From the sequence record OR885871: a stretch of DNA of 64,000 nt; one strand, written 5' to 3'. A program made the translations under genes and the position numbers. The DNA comes from Escherichia phage vB_EcoM_JN03. The notes beneath the pieces are model-generated. The model saw nothing but the letters and a program-made list of their open reading frames with translations. It was not told where the DNA came from and searched no databases. This document shows, in pieces, positions 9,389 through 46,857 of the stretch. Position 1 is the stretch's first letter, and each line of letters starts with the position of its first letter.

Positions 9389-10612
9389 ATGAAAGATAAA
9401 CCATATGACATCCCATATTGCGGTGTCCGTGAAACCAAAATCAAATCAGCCCATCCTATGTTAAGTTCATTCCACCGCCAGCTGGCATATGAATGGATGA
9501 GGGATCGTTATGCGATACATGTCAAGAAGGACGTGCAATGCCTTCCAGCGCCATGGACGGATAATCCGGTATTACGCCAAGTCAAGTTTTGTAACGTGCG
9601 GAGAGAGCACGATAGGCAGTCTCGAAATTTGATCAATAATATCATCCTCGATCAGGATCTCACGCTATCTGACAAAATGTTCAACTGTGTATTGTTCCGC
9701 ATGTACAACATGTGGGAACCTATACAGGCTTTGGGTGGTCCATGGACGATCGAAGAATTCGGAAACATAAATCTTGAATGGTGTCGAGATGTTCTTCAGG
9801 AATTCGAATCTAAAGGTGGCAAAGTTTTCACCAATGCGTTTAATACAGGCGGTCTGAAACAATGCCTGGCTTTCCCTGAACTAGTTGTCAACCACAAGGA
9901 GCAACGCTTTGGCGGCATGAAAGTAAAAGTCCATCGGGTTGGCGGTGTTATAGATGAAATGGATTACAAGGTTGCCAAGAAGCTGGCCGAAGATAATCCT
10001 GGTGAATACAAAATAGAAGGCTGGGAACCATACATGCCGATGCGAGTCATCCGCTCTTTGAAGGCATTCGTCAACAAACACCCTCATTACTTTGATCGCC
10101 TCAGGGAATTTAGCCGTCCCGACTCTGTTTACCAGGCGATGTATGACGACATTGAGGGGCTTGGACCATTCTTGGCATACCAGATTTGGGTTGATTTTAC
10201 ATACATCGATGAATATCCATTCAGTGAAAACCACTTCACTATCGCTGGTCCAGGTTGCCGTGCTGGTATCGATCTGTTATTTTTGGACAAGGACGGCATG
10301 ACGCATGAAGAATGCATATTCTGGGTTCGTGATCATCAAGATCAATTGTTCGCTCAGTATGGGTATAAACGTAATGAATTTTGGTCGGCAGAAGAACCGG
10401 AAGATCGTTGCATGAATGTTATGCAGCTGGAGAACATGTTCTGTGAACTTCAGAAATATACCCGCTGCGTTGAGGCGGTGATGCGCGGGGAGAAACCTCG
10501 AGGAAAGGTGGGGTATGACGGGAATGGCAGTGCGTATAAGCAACGTTGTGATGAAGTCGTCCTCAAACGTGGTTCCGTGAATCTTTTAGAACGTTTGAAG
10601 AAACCTGAATAA
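9389..10612 (+). CDS. hypothetical enzyme-sized protein, 407 aa (candidate nucleotide/base-modification enzyme)
   Basis: ATG with GAGAGGA RBS; no P-loop; no family recognisable by eye; occupies the position where T4 has DNA polymerase. Confidence 0.55.
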   Translation: MKDKPYDIPYCGVRETKIKSAHPMLSSFHRQLAYEWMRDRYAIHVKKDVQCLPAPWTDNPVLRQVKFCNVRREHDRQSRNLINNIILDQDLTLSDKMFNCVLFRMYNMWEPIQALGGPWTIEEFGNINLEWCRDVLQEFESKGGKVFTNAFNTGGLKQCLAFPELVVNHKEQRFGGMKVKVHRVGGVIDEMDYKVAKKLAEDNPGEYKIEGWEPYMPMRVIRSLKAFVNKHPHYFDRLREFSRPDSVYQAMYDDIEGLGPFLAYQIWVDFTYIDEYPFSENHFTIAGPGCRAGIDLLFLDKDGMTHEECIFWVRDHQDQLFAQYGYKRNEFWSAEEPEDRCMNVMQLENMFCELQKYTRCVEAVMRGEKPRGKVGYDGNGSAYKQRCDEVVLKRGSVNLLERLKKPE

Positions 10613-17667: not shown

Positions 17668-17696
17668 ATCCCCAACGTTTGTTGGGGATTTTTACT
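17668..17696 (+). terminator. terminator hairpin (repeat A, copy 1)
   Basis: ATCCCCAAC-gttt-GTTGGGGAT 9-bp stem followed by TTTTTACTTTT. Confidence 0.6.
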
Positions 17697-17704
17697 TTTA
17701 GGGG

Positions 17705-17733
17705 TTTACTTCTATAAGGCAAATGCGTATTAT
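17705..17733 (+). promoter_or_regulatory. T4-type early promoter (GTTTAC -35, 17-bp spacer, TATTAT -10)
   Basis: GTTTACT at 17704-17710, 17-nt spacer, TATTAT; copy 1 of a repeated cassette. Confidence 0.55.
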
Positions 17734-17782
17734 TGAATTCATCGGGCGGGGCGTTCCCGTTCATTGAAAGAAGGTATATATT

Positions 17783-18023: not shown

Positions 18024-18088
18024 ATCCCAACAAACGTTGGGGATTTTTACTTTTAGGGGTTTACTTCTATAAGGCAAATGCGTATTAT
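18024..18088 (+). repeat. repeat A copy 2: terminator hairpin plus early promoter cassette
   Basis: About 65 bp nearly identical to 17668-17733; stem 18024-18044 with loop gttt flipped to aaac; TTTACT 18060-18065, TATTAT 18083-18088. Confidence 0.6.
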
Positions 18089-18139
18089 TCAATAACTGGC
18101 GAACGATGGGTTCACCAGGTTGAAAGGTAAGATTATATC

Positions 18140-24500: not shown

Positions 24501-26222
24501 GTGACAGCATTTAATCAACACCGAAAGGCGATTGACGCCATAGGCCGTAAGGTTCCTATGGAAGAAATACAACGCCTTGCCAAAGATGAATTCCCATATG
24601 ACAAAGCGAACCCAGGCCAGATGGAATGCATCGTCGAAGCCATAGATGCGCTTATCAACAAAAAGGTTAAACATGTCATCATTGAAGCTCCGACAGGCGT
24701 CGGTAAATCTTTGATTGGCACTACCATTCATAAAGTGATTCGTCATCTGGTTTTACAGGCTGATCCTTATGGGCAATTTCGCACTTCTATCAGCACCCCG
24801 ACCAAAGGTCTGCAAGATCAGTATGCTGCTGAAAAAGCAGTATCGATCGATATCCTGAAAGGCAAGAAGAATTATCGTTGCCACGTACATCCAGATGTGT
24901 ATTACAATGCTGTCCAATGCCGTATAGCATGCCGTGACGGGCATTGTAGCAAACGCCGCTGTCCTTATGTACAGGCGCGTAATTTGTGGACGGATATTTC
25001 ATCATTGCGTTGTACTAATGCTGCCATGATGATCGAAATGTGTACAACAATCTGCATGAAGCCCGAAAACCGTTCCGATATGCTGATCCTTGACGAGTGC
25101 CATAAAATGCCCTCTACGCTCCTAGAGCACACGATCATGGAATACAATACAAAGGCCGTGGAGGGGCTGCGTTCTATCCCTGAGGGCAAGGAGATCGTCT
25201 CTACCATTGGTGATATCGTAGAACGCACCAAGGACTATGTCCTGGGCAAGTTATATTCTTTGTCTGGTGAACTACATTCAATGTTTGAAGACCTCCATCT
25301 CAAAGTAGAAAATTTGTTGGAAGTCCTTGAAGAATTGGTCGAAGATGATCGCTTGAGTGAAAGCCAAGTGATGAAACTCGCAGACATTATAGATGTCTTG
25401 CATAACTTGAGTGATTATTGCGGTATTATGTCACAAACCCAAGCAAGTACATTTATTGTGCAAGAAAAGGGGGAAGATTTTATCCGGTTTAAACCTGTTA
25501 TGCCTTCTGATGTAAGTGAATTCGGGTTATTCCGAAAAGCCGATTATCACGTTCATATGTCAGCAACGATCTGTGGTATAGATTCTTATGCTCGTTCATT
25601 GGGTATTCGACAGGGGGATTATCATTCCATTCAGATCGGCAACCCTATCCCAATTGAAAACAGAAAAGTCAACTATATGCCCATAGTGAAGATGACTAAC
25701 AATATGGGCGACTATGAAATGAAAAGGTTGACGGAATATATTGATGAAATAATCGCGTTCCACCCAGGTCAGTCCGGCATTATCCATACAGTGAGTTATG
25801 ATCGCGCCTTGGCAATACAAAAATTTAGTAAATATCAGAATTTTATCCATGTTCCGCGCACCCGAAAGGCGTTGATGGATATTATGGAAAATGCTTTTAG
25901 AACAAAGTCCCCATGTGTCATTGCCAGTCCGGCTATGGAAGAAGGTTATGATTTCAAAGGGGATTACAGCCGTTTCCAAATACTGATCAAAGTCCCTTAT
26001 GATTATCTGGGTGATCCACTGATAGCACATATCAATTCAGTGGATCCGTCGGCATACTTCCGCAACGCAGTACTGCGCATTGTTCAAATGTGTGGGCGTT
26101 CGGTCAGGGGTGTTGATGACTGGGCTGCGACATACATCATTGATTCATCCTTTGAATCTCTTATGATGCGCAACCCAGAATTCTTCCCAACCTGGTTCAC
26201 CGATGCAGTGTTTGAGGTTTAA
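24501..26222 (+). CDS. DinG/XPD-like SF2 helicase with Fe-S cluster cysteines
   Basis: GTG start with AAAGGAGG RBS; Walker A APTGVGKS, DECH box LILDECH, and four cysteines between them (CHVH...CRIACRDGHCSKRRCPY) typical of Rad3/XPD/DinG. Confidence 0.7.
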   Translation: MTAFNQHRKAIDAIGRKVPMEEIQRLAKDEFPYDKANPGQMECIVEAIDALINKKVKHVIIEAPTGVGKSLIGTTIHKVIRHLVLQADPYGQFRTSISTPTKGLQDQYAAEKAVSIDILKGKKNYRCHVHPDVYYNAVQCRIACRDGHCSKRRCPYVQARNLWTDISSLRCTNAAMMIEMCTTICMKPENRSDMLILDECHKMPSTLLEHTIMEYNTKAVEGLRSIPEGKEIVSTIGDIVERTKDYVLGKLYSLSGELHSMFEDLHLKVENLLEVLEELVEDDRLSESQVMKLADIIDVLHNLSDYCGIMSQTQASTFIVQEKGEDFIRFKPVMPSDVSEFGLFRKADYHVHMSATICGIDSYARSLGIRQGDYHSIQIGNPIPIENRKVNYMPIVKMTNNMGDYEMKRLTEYIDEIIAFHPGQSGIIHTVSYDRALAIQKFSKYQNFIHVPRTRKALMDIMENAFRTKSPCVIASPAMEEGYDFKGDYSRFQILIKVPYDYLGDPLIAHINSVDPSAYFRNAVLRIVQMCGRSVRGVDDWAATYIIDSSFESLMMRNPEFFPTWFTDAVFEV

Positions 26223-27028: not shown

Positions 27029-27556
27029 ATGATTGAAATATACACTGACGGGGCATCGTCCCCTCAGAAGACACGAGCCGCTGGTTGGGCATTTGCCATC
27101 AGTCCAATCACTGGAGAGCAATGGAAAGTGTTTTATGGGTATTTACCCCCGCCGTCAACGAACAATATAGCTGAGTTACTCGGGGTTATAAACGCAATGA
27201 AGATCCTATGGAAATTCTCTAATTGCGGTGAACGCTGCATTCCCCCAGCCCGCATCATATCCGACAGCCAATATGTTATCAATAGCGTTTTGGAGTGGCG
27301 TCGTAAATGGGAATATGAAGGAATGCCGCCTAAGAACACAGAACTTCTGCTCGAGTTGTTCGATTATTATGACAAAGTTTGTTCAATTTGTGAACTTGAA
27401 TTAAAATGGGTGAAAGGTCATGCAGGAACGATGGGCAACGAAATTGCGGATCAGTGGAGCGTTAGAGCCAAAGAAGATAGTTCAATGGTTCTTGAAAATA
27501 ACCGTTTCTCGGTCAAGAAAGTCGTTGGTTCTTTCAATGAATTCATTGGTATTTGA
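27029..27556 (+). CDS. RNase H (type 1)
   Basis: IYTDGAS, TNNIAEL, IISDSQYVIN and KWVKGHAGTMGNEIADQ match RNase HI catalytic motifs. Confidence 0.8.
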   Translation: MIEIYTDGASSPQKTRAAGWAFAISPITGEQWKVFYGYLPPPSTNNIAELLGVINAMKILWKFSNCGERCIPPARIISDSQYVINSVLEWRRKWEYEGMPPKNTELLLELFDYYDKVCSICELELKWVKGHAGTMGNEIADQWSVRAKEDSSMVLENNRFSVKKVVGSFNEFIGI

Positions 27557-27567
27557 GGATTATCACG

Positions 27568-28359
27568 ATGGGTATGAATTTTGTAGACAGGGGTGATAAC
27601 GTCACCAAATATTTCACAGACGAAGATAATGACCGTGTTGTTGGAATATTGAGAGATTGGATTCCGGCTCGCAAAAAGGCTTTGGCCGAAGGAACACCCC
27701 TACCAAGAATCCCCAATTATGTGGCCATGAATGTTCAGATGATTATTAAGAACATGAGTATGCGCTACAACTATCGTGATTATCCATACCGCGAAGACAT
27801 GGTCAGTGAGGCCGTTGTCAACATCCTTCGTTACCTCCATACATTTGACGTCAGTCATATCGGCAAGAAAGGAAAAATCAATTTCTTCTCTTGGGTAACG
27901 ATGTGCGCCGACCGTTCATTCGCCAAGAAACTCACCAGTGAAGAAGAACACAATTATATCAAGTTGCGTTCATTTGAAGAAGCAGGTGGTTTCGCTGCAT
28001 TATCAGATGACCCAGACTTCCAGCAACAGACATTCGTAGACAGCACTGGTATAACAATGGACTTCCGTGAGCGTATCGGAAATTTTGAAACTAAGAAAGA
28101 AGCCCAGCGCGAAAAGGAACGCCAAAAGCAAATCGCCATCAAAGAAGAGGAAAAGAATAAGAAAATTCCTCGCGGTATACTTCAATGTCTCACAAAGAGT
28201 GAAAATACCATTACCGCCGACGCCGAAGATAATTCAGACTATGACTTCGGCTCTACTCAATTCAATCTGGAAGACGAAATATGTTCTATGGAACCAGATT
28301 GGGAAGAAGCAAAGAAACGAGCATTAGAACGGGAGCAACAAAATAATGGCGATTGCTAA
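27568..28359 (+). CDS. 55: late-promoter sigma factor (gp55-like) with extended charged C-terminus
   Basis: N-terminal about 150 aa resembles T4 gp55 as recalled (NYVAMNVQMII...AVVNILRYLHTFD...FFSWVTMCADRSFAKK); TATAAATA motifs upstream of minus-strand structural genes are consistent. Confidence 0.6.
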   Translation: MGMNFVDRGDNVTKYFTDEDNDRVVGILRDWIPARKKALAEGTPLPRIPNYVAMNVQMIIKNMSMRYNYRDYPYREDMVSEAVVNILRYLHTFDVSHIGKKGKINFFSWVTMCADRSFAKKLTSEEEHNYIKLRSFEEAGGFAALSDDPDFQQQTFVDSTGITMDFRERIGNFETKKEAQREKERQKQIAIKEEEKNKKIPRGILQCLTKSENTITADAEDNSDYDFGSTQFNLEDEICSMEPDWEEAKKRALEREQQNNGDC

Positions 28360-29461
28360 AATTGGCGATTTACATATCGGGAGCCGTAATGGTTCCCGTT
28401 ACGTTCGAGAATTCATAAAGAATTATCTCATCAATTATTTTATTCCAGAATTGGTTGACGCCGATATTAAAGAAGTGTGGCAATTTGGTGATACGTTTGA
28501 TGTTCGCAAATTCATGTATGGTCGTGATAAAGATTGGTTGAAAGATGAATTGACGCCAGCGCTGCGCAAAGCAGGTATTAAATGGAATGGCATCGTAGGC
28601 AACCATGATATCACGTTAGAAGAGTCCAATCGCATTAACTGGCCTTCTTATCTTAATGAATTGGCACCAGATGTTTATCATTATTACAGTGAACCAACTG
28701 AAGTAATGATTGAAGGTGTCAAGACCCTCCTACTGCCGTGGATTAACAAAGAGAACTATGATGCGTCCATTAAAGCGATACAAGATACAGACGCCAAGTA
28801 CTGTTTTGCGCATCTGGAGTTGGCAGGGTTCAAAATGTACCAGTCCTCTGTATGTGATAAAGGTCAGATCGACTTGGCGCTCCTTTCGAAATTCGAGCGC
28901 GTGGATACCGGACATTTCCATACCCGTTCGATGGAAGGTAACATTCAGTATATTGGGACTCCTTATCATCTTACCTGGGAAGACCACAAAGACGGGACGA
29001 ACCGAGGATTCTATGTAGACGACATGAATGGCGGGGAATTGTTTATCCCCAACAACGAACAACAAACGTTGTTCCGGTTCGTGGAATACGACTACACACA
29101 AATGTCTTCTGATACTGAAGGTAATTGGATCGACCCCGATTGGTTAAACAATGTTTTGGGCATTGAAGGGCAAATCGTTAAGGTGATTGTACAGAACCGT
29201 GACAATGCCAAGCATTATGAAAAGTTCTGTGACGCATTGAAGCGCTGTAAATGCATCGATTACAACTTCATCGATCGGACGATTACTGTTGCTTCCGAGA
29301 AGGTAGAAGTCACTGAAGAGATGGTGGCCACTGATGCTGTGGAAGTCCTGAAGAAAGATATCCGCGCCGCCAATAATATCCAGCGCCCTGAAAATGTTTG
29401 CAAATTAGCAGAACAATTCTATAATGCTGCCCAACAACGCCTGAACACATTGGATGCATAA
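28346..29461 (+). CDS. 47: Mre11/SbcD-like recombination nuclease (gp47-like)
   Basis: Phosphoesterase motifs GDLH, GDTFD, GNHD and GHFH in the canonical order. Confidence 0.85.
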   Translation: MAIAKIGDLHIGSRNGSRYVREFIKNYLINYFIPELVDADIKEVWQFGDTFDVRKFMYGRDKDWLKDELTPALRKAGIKWNGIVGNHDITLEESNRINWPSYLNELAPDVYHYYSEPTEVMIEGVKTLLLPWINKENYDASIKAIQDTDAKYCFAHLELAGFKMYQSSVCDKGQIDLALLSKFERVDTGHFHTRSMEGNIQYIGTPYHLTWEDHKDGTNRGFYVDDMNGGELFIPNNEQQTLFRFVEYDYTQMSSDTEGNWIDPDWLNNVLGIEGQIVKVIVQNRDNAKHYEKFCDALKRCKCIDYNFIDRTITVASEKVEVTEEMVATDAVEVLKKDIRAANNIQRPENVCKLAEQFYNAAQQRLNTLDA

Positions 29462-29463
29462 TA

Positions 29464-31797
29464 ATGAGCAATGTAGACCTATTATCAAAATTTGGTTCGC
29501 TGTTGAAAGAAGCGGACACTCCTGTTTCTGTTGAAGCACCATTTGAAATCCGTGGGGAAATTACCCACAAACTGACTTTCCATCGCGGTCGCGCTAAAAA
29601 CTTCCGTTCCATCGGTAATGAATTCATGGAAATTGATTACCAACGCAATTCGGCAACCTTGGTTACATCCGATGACAATGGGGCGGGCAAATCTACAATG
29701 CTTGTTTGGCTGTTGTTCTTCGTTCTGTATAATGACACATACAGCAAGAAAGAAAAGAAAGCCGGATTAGTCAATTCCCAAAACAAAAAGGAATGCGTGG
29801 GTGAAGTTGAGTTCTCTACTCGCGGAAGTGAATGGAAAGTCCGTCGTGGTATCAAACCTGATTTCGTAGAAGTCTATCAGATGGTAGACGGTGAGTGGAA
29901 GAAGGTCGTGAATGATGCGGCCAAAGCCGACATGAACAAATATATCGTGAACCTGATTGGCGTAGACCAGAAGATGTTTGAGAACTCCCTGGTTCTGGGC
30001 AAAGAGAAGTTCATCCCATTCACGGAAATGTACACTGCCGACCGTCGCGCTATGGTAGAGACAATCTGGGATTTGGGGTTCTTCAGTCTGATGAATGAAG
30101 ATGTAAAAGCATCTATCAAGACAGTAACGAATGAACTCACGACGGTCACCAATGATTACGCCTTTCATGATGTGAATCTAAAAGGCCAGCAAGCGCAGTT
30201 GGAACAGATCAATAATTCCAATGCGATGATCCAGCAACAATCTGCGGATATTCTTGTCCAAGAGAAGGAACGTCTGAATAGCCTGAATTCAGATATCGGC
30301 GCAGTGCAGGAACAACTGACAGAGTCCCGTGCTCAAGACTCTAAATTGGAATCAGAATTATCAGATGTTCGAAATAGACTGAATGCCGAAATGAAAGGGG
30401 ATATCGATGCCATCAATGAAGAGTATGCGGCCAAAATCCAAGCGGTTCAGGATGAGGCTGATACCAAGGCTGAAGACTATGAGCGTATCGAGGTGTCTGA
30501 TGGCGAACGTTCATTACAAGAAATTCGGGAGAGAATGGCGGTAGTCGCGGAACGTAAAAATGATCTGGTCAGCCAACGGAATGCTAACCTGGATGAACTG
30601 AACAAAGCATTAGCGCGGCGTCAGCAGGGTGAGAACTTCCGTATCAAATTCGTAACAGAAATGGAAGGACATGAATCTGCCATCAAACGTTTCCACGATA
30701 TGGGCACTTGCCCTACGTGTACGCAATTAGTGTCGGACGATACCAAATCACGCATTGAAAGTCAATATTATCCACAAATCAGTGAACTGACTGACAAGAT
30801 TCTTCAGGTTGATACAGCCCTAGAAGAAGTGAATTCCCTGATTGAGAATTACAATGTCAGAGATTCAGAATTATCTTCTCAGATTTCGGTTATTGACAAA
30901 GAACTGGATGCTTTGCGCAATGAAATCCGAGAAGCGGAATCAGCGATCGCTACATTAAAACGCGACATCCAAGGATTCTATGATGTCGCTGCTGTTGAGA
31001 AAACATCTTTACAGCGGGAACAACAGTCCAAAATTAACGACGTCCTCAAGGCCGTAGACACCCGTTACGAAGATATCACGACGTCAATCCGTCAAGCGCG
31101 TGAGCAGCTCTCTAAGAGTATCAACGACACGGCTGATAAACTCACCAGCCTGAAATCACGCCGTGCCCCTCTGGAGGCATCCATTGCCGATTTAGAGCGT
31201 AAATTGGCGGTTAAGCCGACACCAACTGACGCCCTGGAAGGAGAGATCGCTCGCATCACGGCATTAATGGAAGATCTGAATGCGCGGCGCGTAGAGTTGG
31301 ATGAGAAATTGCAAGACCTGAACCATCTTCTGTTCTTCCTAAAAGATGATCAGACCAAGGCTCGAATTATCAGCCTGTATTTGCCTTTCCTCAATAGTAA
31401 AATAAACGAGTATCTTGAAGCACTCAATATGTTCTTGGATATTGCTGTTGATGATACATTTGAAATCACCATGAGCGCTGCAGGTCGTAAAGGGCAAAGC
31501 ATCTTCTCGTTATCTACTGGTCAGCGTAGTCGCCTGAACCTGGCTGTGACATTAGCTTTACGAGATGTTGCAAACCTCAAGGCGTCGGTGCAATGTAACC
31601 TGTTTGTGCTAGATGAAATCCTTGAGAACATGAGCGAGCGCGGCGTACAAGAATCGGTTGAGATGCTGAAGCATAAATTTGGCGGGAACAATCTGTTCGT
31701 TATCAGTCAACGCGAGCAGGAATTCCAAGAGTATTTCCAACACAACATCCGTTATGGTCTGCGTAATGGCATGACTGAAGTGATTAAGAAGGATTGA
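29464..31797 (+). CDS. 46: Rad50/SbcC-like ATPase (gp46-like)
   Basis: N-terminal Walker A DDNGAGKST, long coiled-coil middle with a CPTC zinc hook, C-terminal signature LSTGQRSRL and Walker B LFVLDE. Confidence 0.85.
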   Translation: MSNVDLLSKFGSLLKEADTPVSVEAPFEIRGEITHKLTFHRGRAKNFRSIGNEFMEIDYQRNSATLVTSDDNGAGKSTMLVWLLFFVLYNDTYSKKEKKAGLVNSQNKKECVGEVEFSTRGSEWKVRRGIKPDFVEVYQMVDGEWKKVVNDAAKADMNKYIVNLIGVDQKMFENSLVLGKEKFIPFTEMYTADRRAMVETIWDLGFFSLMNEDVKASIKTVTNELTTVTNDYAFHDVNLKGQQAQLEQINNSNAMIQQQSADILVQEKERLNSLNSDIGAVQEQLTESRAQDSKLESELSDVRNRLNAEMKGDIDAINEEYAAKIQAVQDEADTKAEDYERIEVSDGERSLQEIRERMAVVAERKNDLVSQRNANLDELNKALARRQQGENFRIKFVTEMEGHESAIKRFHDMGTCPTCTQLVSDDTKSRIESQYYPQISELTDKILQVDTALEEVNSLIENYNVRDSELSSQISVIDKELDALRNEIREAESAIATLKRDIQGFYDVAAVEKTSLQREQQSKINDVLKAVDTRYEDITTSIRQAREQLSKSINDTADKLTSLKSRRAPLEASIADLERKLAVKPTPTDALEGEIARITALMEDLNARRVELDEKLQDLNHLLFFLKDDQTKARIISLYLPFLNSKINEYLEALNMFLDIAVDDTFEITMSAAGRKGQSIFSLSTGQRSRLNLAVTLALRDVANLKASVQCNLFVLDEILENMSERGVQESVEMLKHKFGGNNLFVISQREQEFQEYFQHNIRYGLRNGMTEVIKKD

Positions 31798-36903: not shown

Positions 36904-37449
36904 ATGAAACCGTTTATCGAATATTTTAAAGAACAAGCTCAACAACCGCAAACACATGGCGGCATACAAGGCAAAAGTGTAACCATCACCAAACAGGCCG
37001 ACGGAACCCAATGGTGTACTGGTGCCACCGTAACCCAGATCACTCCAGATAATCAGGCCGACATCTATAATCTGGAATTGACTAATGGCAACACCATCAA
37101 AGTGAAGCTAACTCCAGACCAGACCCACGGCATTACCCAAGGCCAAGAAGTCGTTGCCGTCCATGATGGGTTTGAATTCTTCTTCGGCAAGTCGGCTGAC
37201 AAAGGTCAGGTTACTGAAACGGAAGGCTGGCGTTTCGTCGGTGACCGTGGCGCTCATATTCTGATGTATGACGCAAAAGTTGGCGGTGCCTCCACTATCC
37301 TTCGCAGTCCAACAGATCGAACCAAATTTGTTGGTGGTCTCATCAACGGCAGAAAAATTTTGGGTAATTCCCCAGAAGAACTGGCGGCAAAATTAGGTCT
37401 TCCAAAAATTCCTGATAATTTATTAAAATCATTTTTTGGTAAAAAGTGA
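36904..37449 (+). CDS. hypothetical protein, 181 aa
   Basis: AGGAGA RBS; C-terminal LGLPKIPDNLLKSF motif. Confidence 0.5.
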   Translation: MKPFIEYFKEQAQQPQTHGGIQGKSVTITKQADGTQWCTGATVTQITPDNQADIYNLELTNGNTIKVKLTPDQTHGITQGQEVVAVHDGFEFFFGKSADKGQVTETEGWRFVGDRGAHILMYDAKVGGASTILRSPTDRTKFVGGLINGRKILGNSPEELAAKLGLPKIPDNLLKSFFGKK

Positions 37450-46811: not shown

Positions 46812-46857
46812 GCCCCTCATCGAGGGGCTTTACTTCTATAAATCCTGCGCTTATACT
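46812..46857 (+). promoter_or_regulatory. terminator hairpin fused to early promoter (CTTTAC, N17, TATACT)
   Basis: GCCCCTC-atc-GAGGGGC hairpin then TTTACT 46829-46834, 17-nt spacer, TATACT 46852-46857. Confidence 0.55.

Follow-up and report, generated by a model that had tools for sequence, protein, structure and literature searches.

The late sigma factor gene and its conserved core

The window analysed here is a stretch of 64,000 nucleotides of Escherichia phage vB_EcoM_JN03 (sequence record OR885871), and the gene under study, at positions 27568-28359 of its plus strand, encodes a late sigma factor related to gp55 of phage T4. The gene is real, intact and already annotated, and its product is the late sigma factor of a Vi1-like Kuttervirus (Ackermannviridae) phage. 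The open reading frame (ORF) extends from an ATG at 27568 to a stop codon at 28357-28359 and specifies 263 amino acids, with the Shine-Dalgarno sequence GAGGA lying 8 nucleotides upstream of the ATG; a TTG start at 27553 given in a mechanical list of ORFs overlaps the RNase H stop codon and lacks a Shine-Dalgarno signal. The parts of the gene are as follows, where dN/dS denotes the ratio of nonsynonymous to synonymous substitution rates.

27568-28359, plus strand: complete gp55-family late sigma factor gene, 263 amino acids plus stop, from the ORF and its translation
27568-28083, plus strand: conserved core, residues 1-172, sigma-region-2-like domain plus helix-loop-helix, from profile, model, residues and dN/dS
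28084-28167, plus strand: linker rich in K, E, R and Q, residues 173-200, the distal part of a predicted long helix spanning residues 166-199
28168-28194, plus strand: putative sliding-clamp-binding motif, residues 201-209 (P-R-G-I-L-Q-C-L-T), internal, aligned with T4 PSLDFLYEAND
28195-28278, plus strand: proximal acidic tail, residues 210-237, with the motif D-x-D-F-G-x-T-Q-F-x-L-E-(D/E), from conservation, dN/dS and the structure model
28279-28359, plus strand: hypervariable distal tail, residues 238-263 plus stop, known from indel variants, with about the last nine codons overlapping the ribosome-binding site and start of gp47

The protein matched the PHROG 234 profile ("late sigma transcription factor") with E=1.6e-53, residues 12-207 aligning with profile positions 4-177 of 181, and T4 gp55 belongs to the same family (E=3.4e-69). 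A profile built from 44 homologues and searched against the PDB recovered a single entry, T4 gp55 (7d7c_F; 7D7C/7D7D), at E=5.2e-7, with profile positions 19-177 aligned to T4 residues 11-159; a single-sequence phmmer search of the PDB missed gp55 and returned nothing relevant. No Pfam or NCBIfam model matched the protein, and T4 gp55, searched in NCBIfam only, was likewise unmatched. An AlphaFold2 model made with the homologue alignment was all-helical, with a mean predicted local distance difference test (pLDDT) score of 75.8 and values of mostly 77-94 in the core. The top Foldseek match of this model in the PDB was again 7d7c_F (probability 1.00, template modelling (TM) score normalised to the target 0.70, 142 aligned columns), followed by region 2 of sigma-E, and the model contains the sigma-region-2-like fold plus helix-loop-helix (H1-H5 of PDB 7D7C) that characterises the T4 protein. 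The proposal of the preliminary description that this is a gp55-like late sigma factor is thus borne out by the PHROG, PDB profile and Foldseek searches.

Conservation of individual residues was assessed at 13 T4 positions (N13, L54, R57, F86, H95, Y97 and T99; E70, D74 and E77; R114; Y10 and W23), drawn from the contacts listed for the −10-like element and the beta-prime clamp helices (PMC7892883, PMC2988020). Ten of the 13 are identical or conservatively replaced in the window protein (Y15, N21, W31, M63, R66, D77, E81, F93, W109 and T111), and three are changed (H95 to F107, E77 to V84 and R114 to E126). Pairwise dN/dS in the core was 0.003-0.045. Residues ~1-172 are therefore a true gp55-family core, a somewhat longer one than first described: resemblance to T4 gp55 had been claimed for about the first 150 residues, and while that core is real, the profile alignment continues to about residue 177 (T4 residue 159). 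Alignment of homologues, which had been proposed as the means of defining the core, does delimit a gp55 core at about residues 1-172, but the whole 185 residues of the T4 protein align up to about residue 211. As a separate observation on the family, the metagenomic members P0084, P0170, P0188 and P0192 lack the linker and motif and carry another C-terminal extension there instead. These extensions resemble small DNA-binding domains by eye, that of P0192 being like a LuxR or sigma-4-like helix-turn-helix; in Pfam, HTH_23 and GerE matched below their cut-offs and Sigma70_r2 above its cut-off in P0188, and the four proteins may be natural two-domain relatives of gp55.

In tblastn searches of phage genomes, well over a hundred records of Kuttervirus carried the protein with 100% identity and 137 records with at least 99%, and almost all of the near-identical Kuttervirus records annotate it as a late sigma factor. 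Identity across more than 100 genomes indicates that the reading frame did not arise from a sequencing error. Three records with 99-100% identical Kuttervirus sequence carry other host names (OR844944.1 and OR844942.1, "Enterococcus phage Efm 3-10", and MN871475.1, "Pseudomonas phage Pa-sanjiao") and are probably mislabelled or contaminated. The gene lies in the order helicase (24501-26222), a hypothetical gene on the reverse strand, RNase HI (27029-27556), sigma factor, gp47/SbcD-like (28346-29461) and gp46/SbcC-like (29464-31797). In Dickeya phage Kamild (L004:1773-2507), a homing endonuclease gene lies between the RNase H and sigma factor genes, its end overlapping the start of the sigma ORF.

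Charged linker and internal hydrophobic motif

In T4 gp55, the ordered part ends at residue 153 and is followed by a 21-residue linker (154-174) and the clamp-binding motif PSLDFLYEAND (175-185) (PMC7892883). We aligned the window protein with T4 gp55 and members of eight Ackermannviridae lineages, and then with 43 homologues; each alignment placed the linker and motif of T4 on window residues ~173-211. The protein had been described as carrying a charged extension of about 110 residues beyond the gp55-like part. The ORF does continue and is rich in charge (43% charged residues in 176-263 versus 28% in 1-175), but only some 54 residues (210-263) lack a T4 counterpart. The peptide singled out in that description, KKEAQREKERQKQIAIKEEEKNKK, is present at residues 176-199 and is the counterpart of the T4 linker. 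The AlphaFold2 model places it at the far end of a helix spanning residues 166-199 (pLDDT ~76-87), and its dN/dS was 0.08-0.17. Similar linkers rich in K, R and E, about 15-35 residues long, occur across the gp55 family, so that most of the "charged extension" is the normal tether of the family and not an addition. The T4 linker is known to tolerate substitutions and insertions (PMC2988020).

Immediately after the linker lies the hydrophobic segment P201-R-G-I-L-Q-C-L-T209. Its glycine (G203) is nearly invariant among homologues, relatives carry KGILQYL, KGLAQYL, KGFALYL, NKLARLL, NGLAKLF or KGLALFM at this place, and the match to the PHROG 234 profile stops at residue 207, by the motif. The proteins of the basal Ackermannviridae from Vibrio (BX-1, D504) and Ralstonia (RSP15), and the metagenomic proteins P0045-P0048, end 3-12 residues past it, as T4 gp55 does. 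A wider search gave 1925 family representatives at E<=1e-3, and among those C-termini that were read in the best 150 the usual plan was a (Y/F)E-x-K anchor, a K/R/E-rich linker, a hydrophobic motif and 0-13 mostly acidic residues; an equivalent motif of the type KG[LIV]xx[FL][LMIF], followed by 0-13 residues to the stop, is found in basal Ackermannviridae and in many family members. In this phage group the DNA polymerase terminates in ...RRVNLLSMMGKKG (...VNLLSMMGKKG*), as the T4 polymerase does in ...SLDFLFG, and this likeness of the polymerase C-terminus is consistent with GILQCL being the form that the clamp-binding motif takes in this lineage. Engineered fusions of T4 gp55 and gp33 in which the motif is internal stay functional (PMC2988020). 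Taken together, the alignments make it reasonably probable that GILQCL is the sliding-clamp-binding motif. The suggestion that the extension adds a clamp-interaction domain was therefore half right: a putative clamp element is likely to be there, but as the counterpart of the linker and motif of T4 and the family, not as something added.

The two further components known from T4 late transcription are encoded elsewhere in the window, in agreement with the genome paper on phage CBA120 (PMC3184105).

5782-6450, plus strand: gp45-like sliding clamp, the presumed partner of the motif (PHROG 223, DNA polymerase processivity factor, E=1.5e-65)
53525-53767, plus strand: gp33-like late transcription coactivator, 80 amino acids (PHROG 254, late promoter transcriptional regulator, E=4.2e-23)

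The former is annotated as a sliding clamp in phage heyday, and the latter is annotated as gp33-like in many Kuttervirus records. The gp33-like protein is shorter than T4 gp33 (80 versus 112 residues) and ends in ...ARLLKGELKSKKLI*, without a clamp motif like the LDFLL of T4.

Other C-termini in the window are reminiscent of clamp-binding sequences. Two uncharacterised ORFs, at 36904-37449 and 9389-10612 (both plus strand), end in ...PDNLLKSFFGKK and ...SVNLLERLKKPE, close to the polymerase ending ...VNLLSMMGKKG*, and may be further clients of the sliding clamp. The gp32-like single-stranded DNA-binding protein (54113-55144, plus strand) ends in ...IDEFEQFLKQD* and RNase HI (plus strand) in ...GSFNEFIGI*; these acidic-hydrophobic tips are kept across Ackermannviridae genera and are similar to clamp-binding motifs found in other lineages of gp55, such as ...NFFEQFLNE* in P0061.

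The acidic tail, its reading frame and the gp47 junction

Past the motif, residues 210-263 (54 residues, net charge −11) are without equivalent in T4 and the basal Ackermannviridae, and only this post-motif acidic tail is unusual. At 263 residues the protein is as long as the longest among the 150 best family representatives (median 202), and acidic tails of 26-55 residues follow the motif in a few unrelated lineages as well (P0059, P0063, P0089, P0093, P0161 and P0191), making the architecture uncommon but recurrent. The two halves of the tail differ in constraint. The proximal half is predicted to be disordered (pLDDT <50 for residues 212-239) and contains, within the peptide DFGSTQFNLEDE (residues 220-240), the motif DFGxTQFxLE(D/E). 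This motif is kept in Kuttervirus, Agtrevirus, Limestonevirus, Taipeivirus and more distant metagenomic relatives such as P0033 and P0043, and is missing or degenerate in Miltonvirus. In four of the five computable comparisons, dN/dS for residues 212-237 was 0.09-0.15, a pattern indicating that frame 0 is under selection and that the proximal tail is constrained. No PHROG family matched the C-terminal 113 residues, and no other occurrence of the tail motif was found in the phage proteome; a word-index protein search with the 63-residue tail returned no match, its parent protein included, and is uninformative. The hexapeptide TQFNLE was also considered as a motif for the host beta clamp (QL[SD]LF-like) and was dropped, as its Q and its terminal hydrophobic positions vary among homologues.

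The distal half is weakly constrained and is shaped by insertions and deletions (indels) and by the start signals of the next gene.

28346-29461, plus strand: gp47 (SbcD/Mre11-like) gene, from the ORF listing, annotated in relatives as SbcD-like or as a recombination endonuclease subunit

The gp47 and sigma factor genes overlap by 14 nucleotides, and the Shine-Dalgarno sequence (GGGAG, 28331-28335) and ATG (28346) of gp47 lie within the last sigma codons. The distal tail occurs in at least three forms (ICSMEPDWEE...NNGDC, IMDSPTLLAE...NNGDC and a short ...TEGETE) that differ by indels of 21 and 50 nucleotides, the 50-nucleotide deletion shifting the terminal reading frame; the NNGDC ending recurs because the last codons coincide with the gp47 start signals. 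Against the alternative allele the distal tail had a dN of ~1.1-1.3, and the model contains a weak helix at residues 245-259 (pLDDT ~68). The forms are also shared across genera: that of Kuttervirus AR2819 equals that of Taipeivirus KN2-1, Agtrevirus P46FS4 has the window form and Agtrevirus MK-13 has the short form of the Limestonevirus type. The tail alleles and the gp55/gp47 junction (loci L001-L005 compared with 28279-28359) thus form a mosaic over Kuttervirus, Agtrevirus, Taipeivirus and Limestonevirus, which suggests recombination or recurrent indels at the junction.

A tentative and improbable proposal is that the conserved tail motif (residues 224-236) may be a second docking element, of a sort not described before for a gp55-type sigma factor: it might contact a second clamp subunit or another surface of the replisome or RNA polymerase, or else serve as an acidic DNA mimic like sigma region 1.1. 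As a DNA mimic, the motif would be autoinhibitory, keeping basal transcription low as long as the neighbouring clamp motif is unbound.

The tail might instead be neutral, a translated spacer that arose when the ancestral stop codon behind the clamp motif was lost and that is tolerated because it is disordered. Its absence from basal lineages and its predicted disorder suit this explanation, as does the near-continuous range of tail lengths among relatives (0, 5, 14, 25, 34, 45 and 55 residues) and as do the indels of the distal part that are not multiples of three and the gp47 translation signals that it holds. Against it, the proximal 28 residues are conserved across genera that are just 54-78% identical overall, with a dN/dS of ~0.1, and other lineages of gp55 have independently acquired acidic tails behind the motif. 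We hold neutrality of the tail as a whole to be improbable.

It is less probable still that DFGxTQFxLE(D/E) serves as an additional clamp-binding motif, or as the real one, giving gp55 two arms on the trimeric clamp or substituting for a weak gp33 arm. Clamp motifs of the T4 type are described as "hydrophobic and acidic" (PMC2988020), the tail motif lies only 6-8 residues from the C-terminus in Limestonevirus and in MK-13, other tailed lineages finish in a second hydrophobic-acidic patch (...EELDFE in P0063, ...LDIIFEED in P0089), and the gp33-like C-terminus ...KSKKLI is a poor motif. The F-x-L spacing, however, is unlike the family pattern of adjacent hydrophobic residues, and it is GILQCL, not the tail motif, that the C-terminus of this phage group's polymerase resembles. 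Tail-less Vibrio relatives share the same gp33 C-terminus, so there is no pattern of compensation, and the loss or degeneration of the motif in Miltonvirus also tells against such a role.

The preliminary description had further pointed to an ORF for a very basic 86-residue peptide, open in another frame over the same DNA. It is present, beginning at a GTG in the +1 frame, and we judge it not to be a gene.

28067-28327, plus strand: 86-residue basic ORF in the +1 frame, GTG start, judged not a gene

Its stop-free run of 90 codons and the strong basicity of the peptide are what could recommend it as a real overlapping gene, or as a sequence reached by programmed frameshifting. Runs of at least 90 codons in the +1 or +2 frame nevertheless appeared in 11% of codon shuffles of the sigma gene (P ~0.11; mean longest run 65), because coding sequence rich in GAA and AAG offers few stop codons, which contain T. 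In relatives the longest +1 run was 74 codons (AR2819), 39-72 codons elsewhere (among the values 66, 69, 72, 54, 39 and 43) and, in two cases, a displaced run of 92; no start or stop is common to them, and the boundaries vary even within Kuttervirus. The ORF has no ATG start, the PHROG search with the 86-residue product returned no match, and there is no marked loss of synonymous change, dS against AR2819 being 0.65 over the overlap and 0.92 in the core, not near zero. A second gene here is very improbable, and the 86-residue ORF is a by-product of base composition.

The chance is negligible that the long ORF is an artefact, in which a sequencing frameshift or misassembly joined a sigma gene of about 175 codons to downstream sequence: the protein is longer than the 185 residues of T4 gp55 and at the upper limit of its family, and Ralstonia phage RSP15 has a separate 92-residue ORF between a 201-residue sigma gene and gp47, but the same protein is found in more than 130 independent genomes, the ORF is open at 201-264 residues in all Ackermannviridae genera examined and continuous at 242-264 residues in five of them (Kuttervirus, Agtrevirus, Limestonevirus, Taipeivirus and Miltonvirus) and in many metagenomic relatives, and purifying selection acts on frame 0 across the linker and the proximal tail. 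The worry about a frameshift that had been voiced for this locus is thereby refuted. The 92-residue ORF of RSP15 is unlike the tail, and an origin of the tail by fusion with a once-separate downstream gene was rejected on this lack of similarity.

Proposed mechanism and comparison with known systems

Given the conserved core, the family-type linker and the position of the hydrophobic motif, it is likely that the window protein is a standard gp55-type sigma factor with a charged-helix tether, an internal clamp-binding motif and a lineage-specific, acidic, disordered tail. By homology with T4, the core would dock on the beta-prime clamp helices of the host RNA polymerase and read a −10-like late promoter element. 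The charged helix and linker would extend to the motif G-I-L-Q-C-L, which would plug into the DNA-loaded phage sliding clamp, the gp45 homologue. With the gp33-like coactivator participating, late transcription would be coupled to replication, and the proximal acidic-aromatic motif would most likely be an extra protein-contact or charge-modulating element that tunes clamp-dependent activation.

Several observations weigh against this picture. GILQCL is less aromatic and less acidic than the SLDFLY of T4, clamp binding is predicted from sequence, and the attachment sites on the clamp may differ among T4 relatives (PMC2988020). The gp33-like C-terminus (...LKSKKLI) presents no obvious clamp motif. 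For the tail, the comparison with Klebsiella phage KN2-1 (Taipeivirus) gave a dN/dS of 0.58 in the proximal half; any tail function is one that we infer entirely, and a specific one is far less probable than clamp binding by GILQCL. Lastly, the T4 late promoter TATAAATA was not enriched in the window (3 matches versus 1.99 expected). This non-enrichment, together with the change of H95 to F107, suggests that a different late promoter is used; the late promoter of Vi1-like phages has been reported as unidentified (PMC3184105), and a crude k-mer screen upstream of genes yielded no convincing late-promoter consensus. Separately, a near-identical intergenic element, ggatttttacttttaggggtttactTCTATAAggcaaatgcgtattatt, is present in two copies (~17686-17760 and 18041-18115, plus strand) upstream of small ORFs, with a similar sequence, ...ggggctttactTCTATAA, near 46835; the copies resemble repeated elements of a promoter type.

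Nearly all understanding of clamp-activated late transcription comes from T4, and the window protein is a natural variant in which the putative motif is internal, borne on a long charged helix and followed by a conserved acidic tail of a kind that has arisen several times in the family. If the tail has a role, it would be a new regulatory handle in the classic coupling of replication and transcription, and this in phages whose group is in wide use against Salmonella and E. coli O157; were it a second docking element or a DNA mimic, the enterobacterial Ackermannviridae would wire replication-coupled late transcription in a manner unlike T4. If it has none, this is a well-conserved, correctly annotated gene, and the gain is a clearer domain map from which a suspected frameshift and an overlapping gene have been removed. 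Public annotations already include the gene with its assignment to this family; no earlier description of the domain map (linker, internal motif, conserved tail motif and gp47-shaped end) was found in the literature searched.

Compared with T4 gp55 (PDB 7D7C/7D7D), the window protein shares the PHROG family, the sigma-region-2-like fold with its helix-loop-helix, most of the promoter-pocket and beta-prime-contact residues and, towards the C-terminus, a short hydrophobic motif preceded by a linker. Homologues of gp45 and gp33 are encoded by both phages, and in both the sigma gene is close to genes 47 and 46. The two proteins differ in that identity is only ~19% and the window protein has about 8 extra N-terminal residues; its linker is ~28 residues long and apparently helical, against 21 residues in T4; its motif is the non-aromatic, internal GILQCL, against LDFLY; and 54 acidic-tail residues follow the motif, against 4 in T4. 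The T4 late promoter, moreover, is not enriched in the window.

Among the basal Ackermannviridae, Vibrio phages BX-1 and D504 and Ralstonia phage RSP15 share the neighbourhood of helicase, RNase H, sigma, gp47 and gp46, and their gp55 proteins share the core, the basic linker and a G-L-x-x-h-h motif (h, hydrophobic). They are shorter, at 201-220 residues, with the stop 5-8 residues past the motif and no acidic tail. The metagenomic lineages P0059, P0063, P0089, P0093, P0161 and P0191 repeat the whole plan of core, basic linker, hydrophobic motif and a mostly acidic tail, but with tail sequences that are unrelated and devoid of the DFGxTQFxLE motif; their acidic tails appear to have arisen independently of the one described here.

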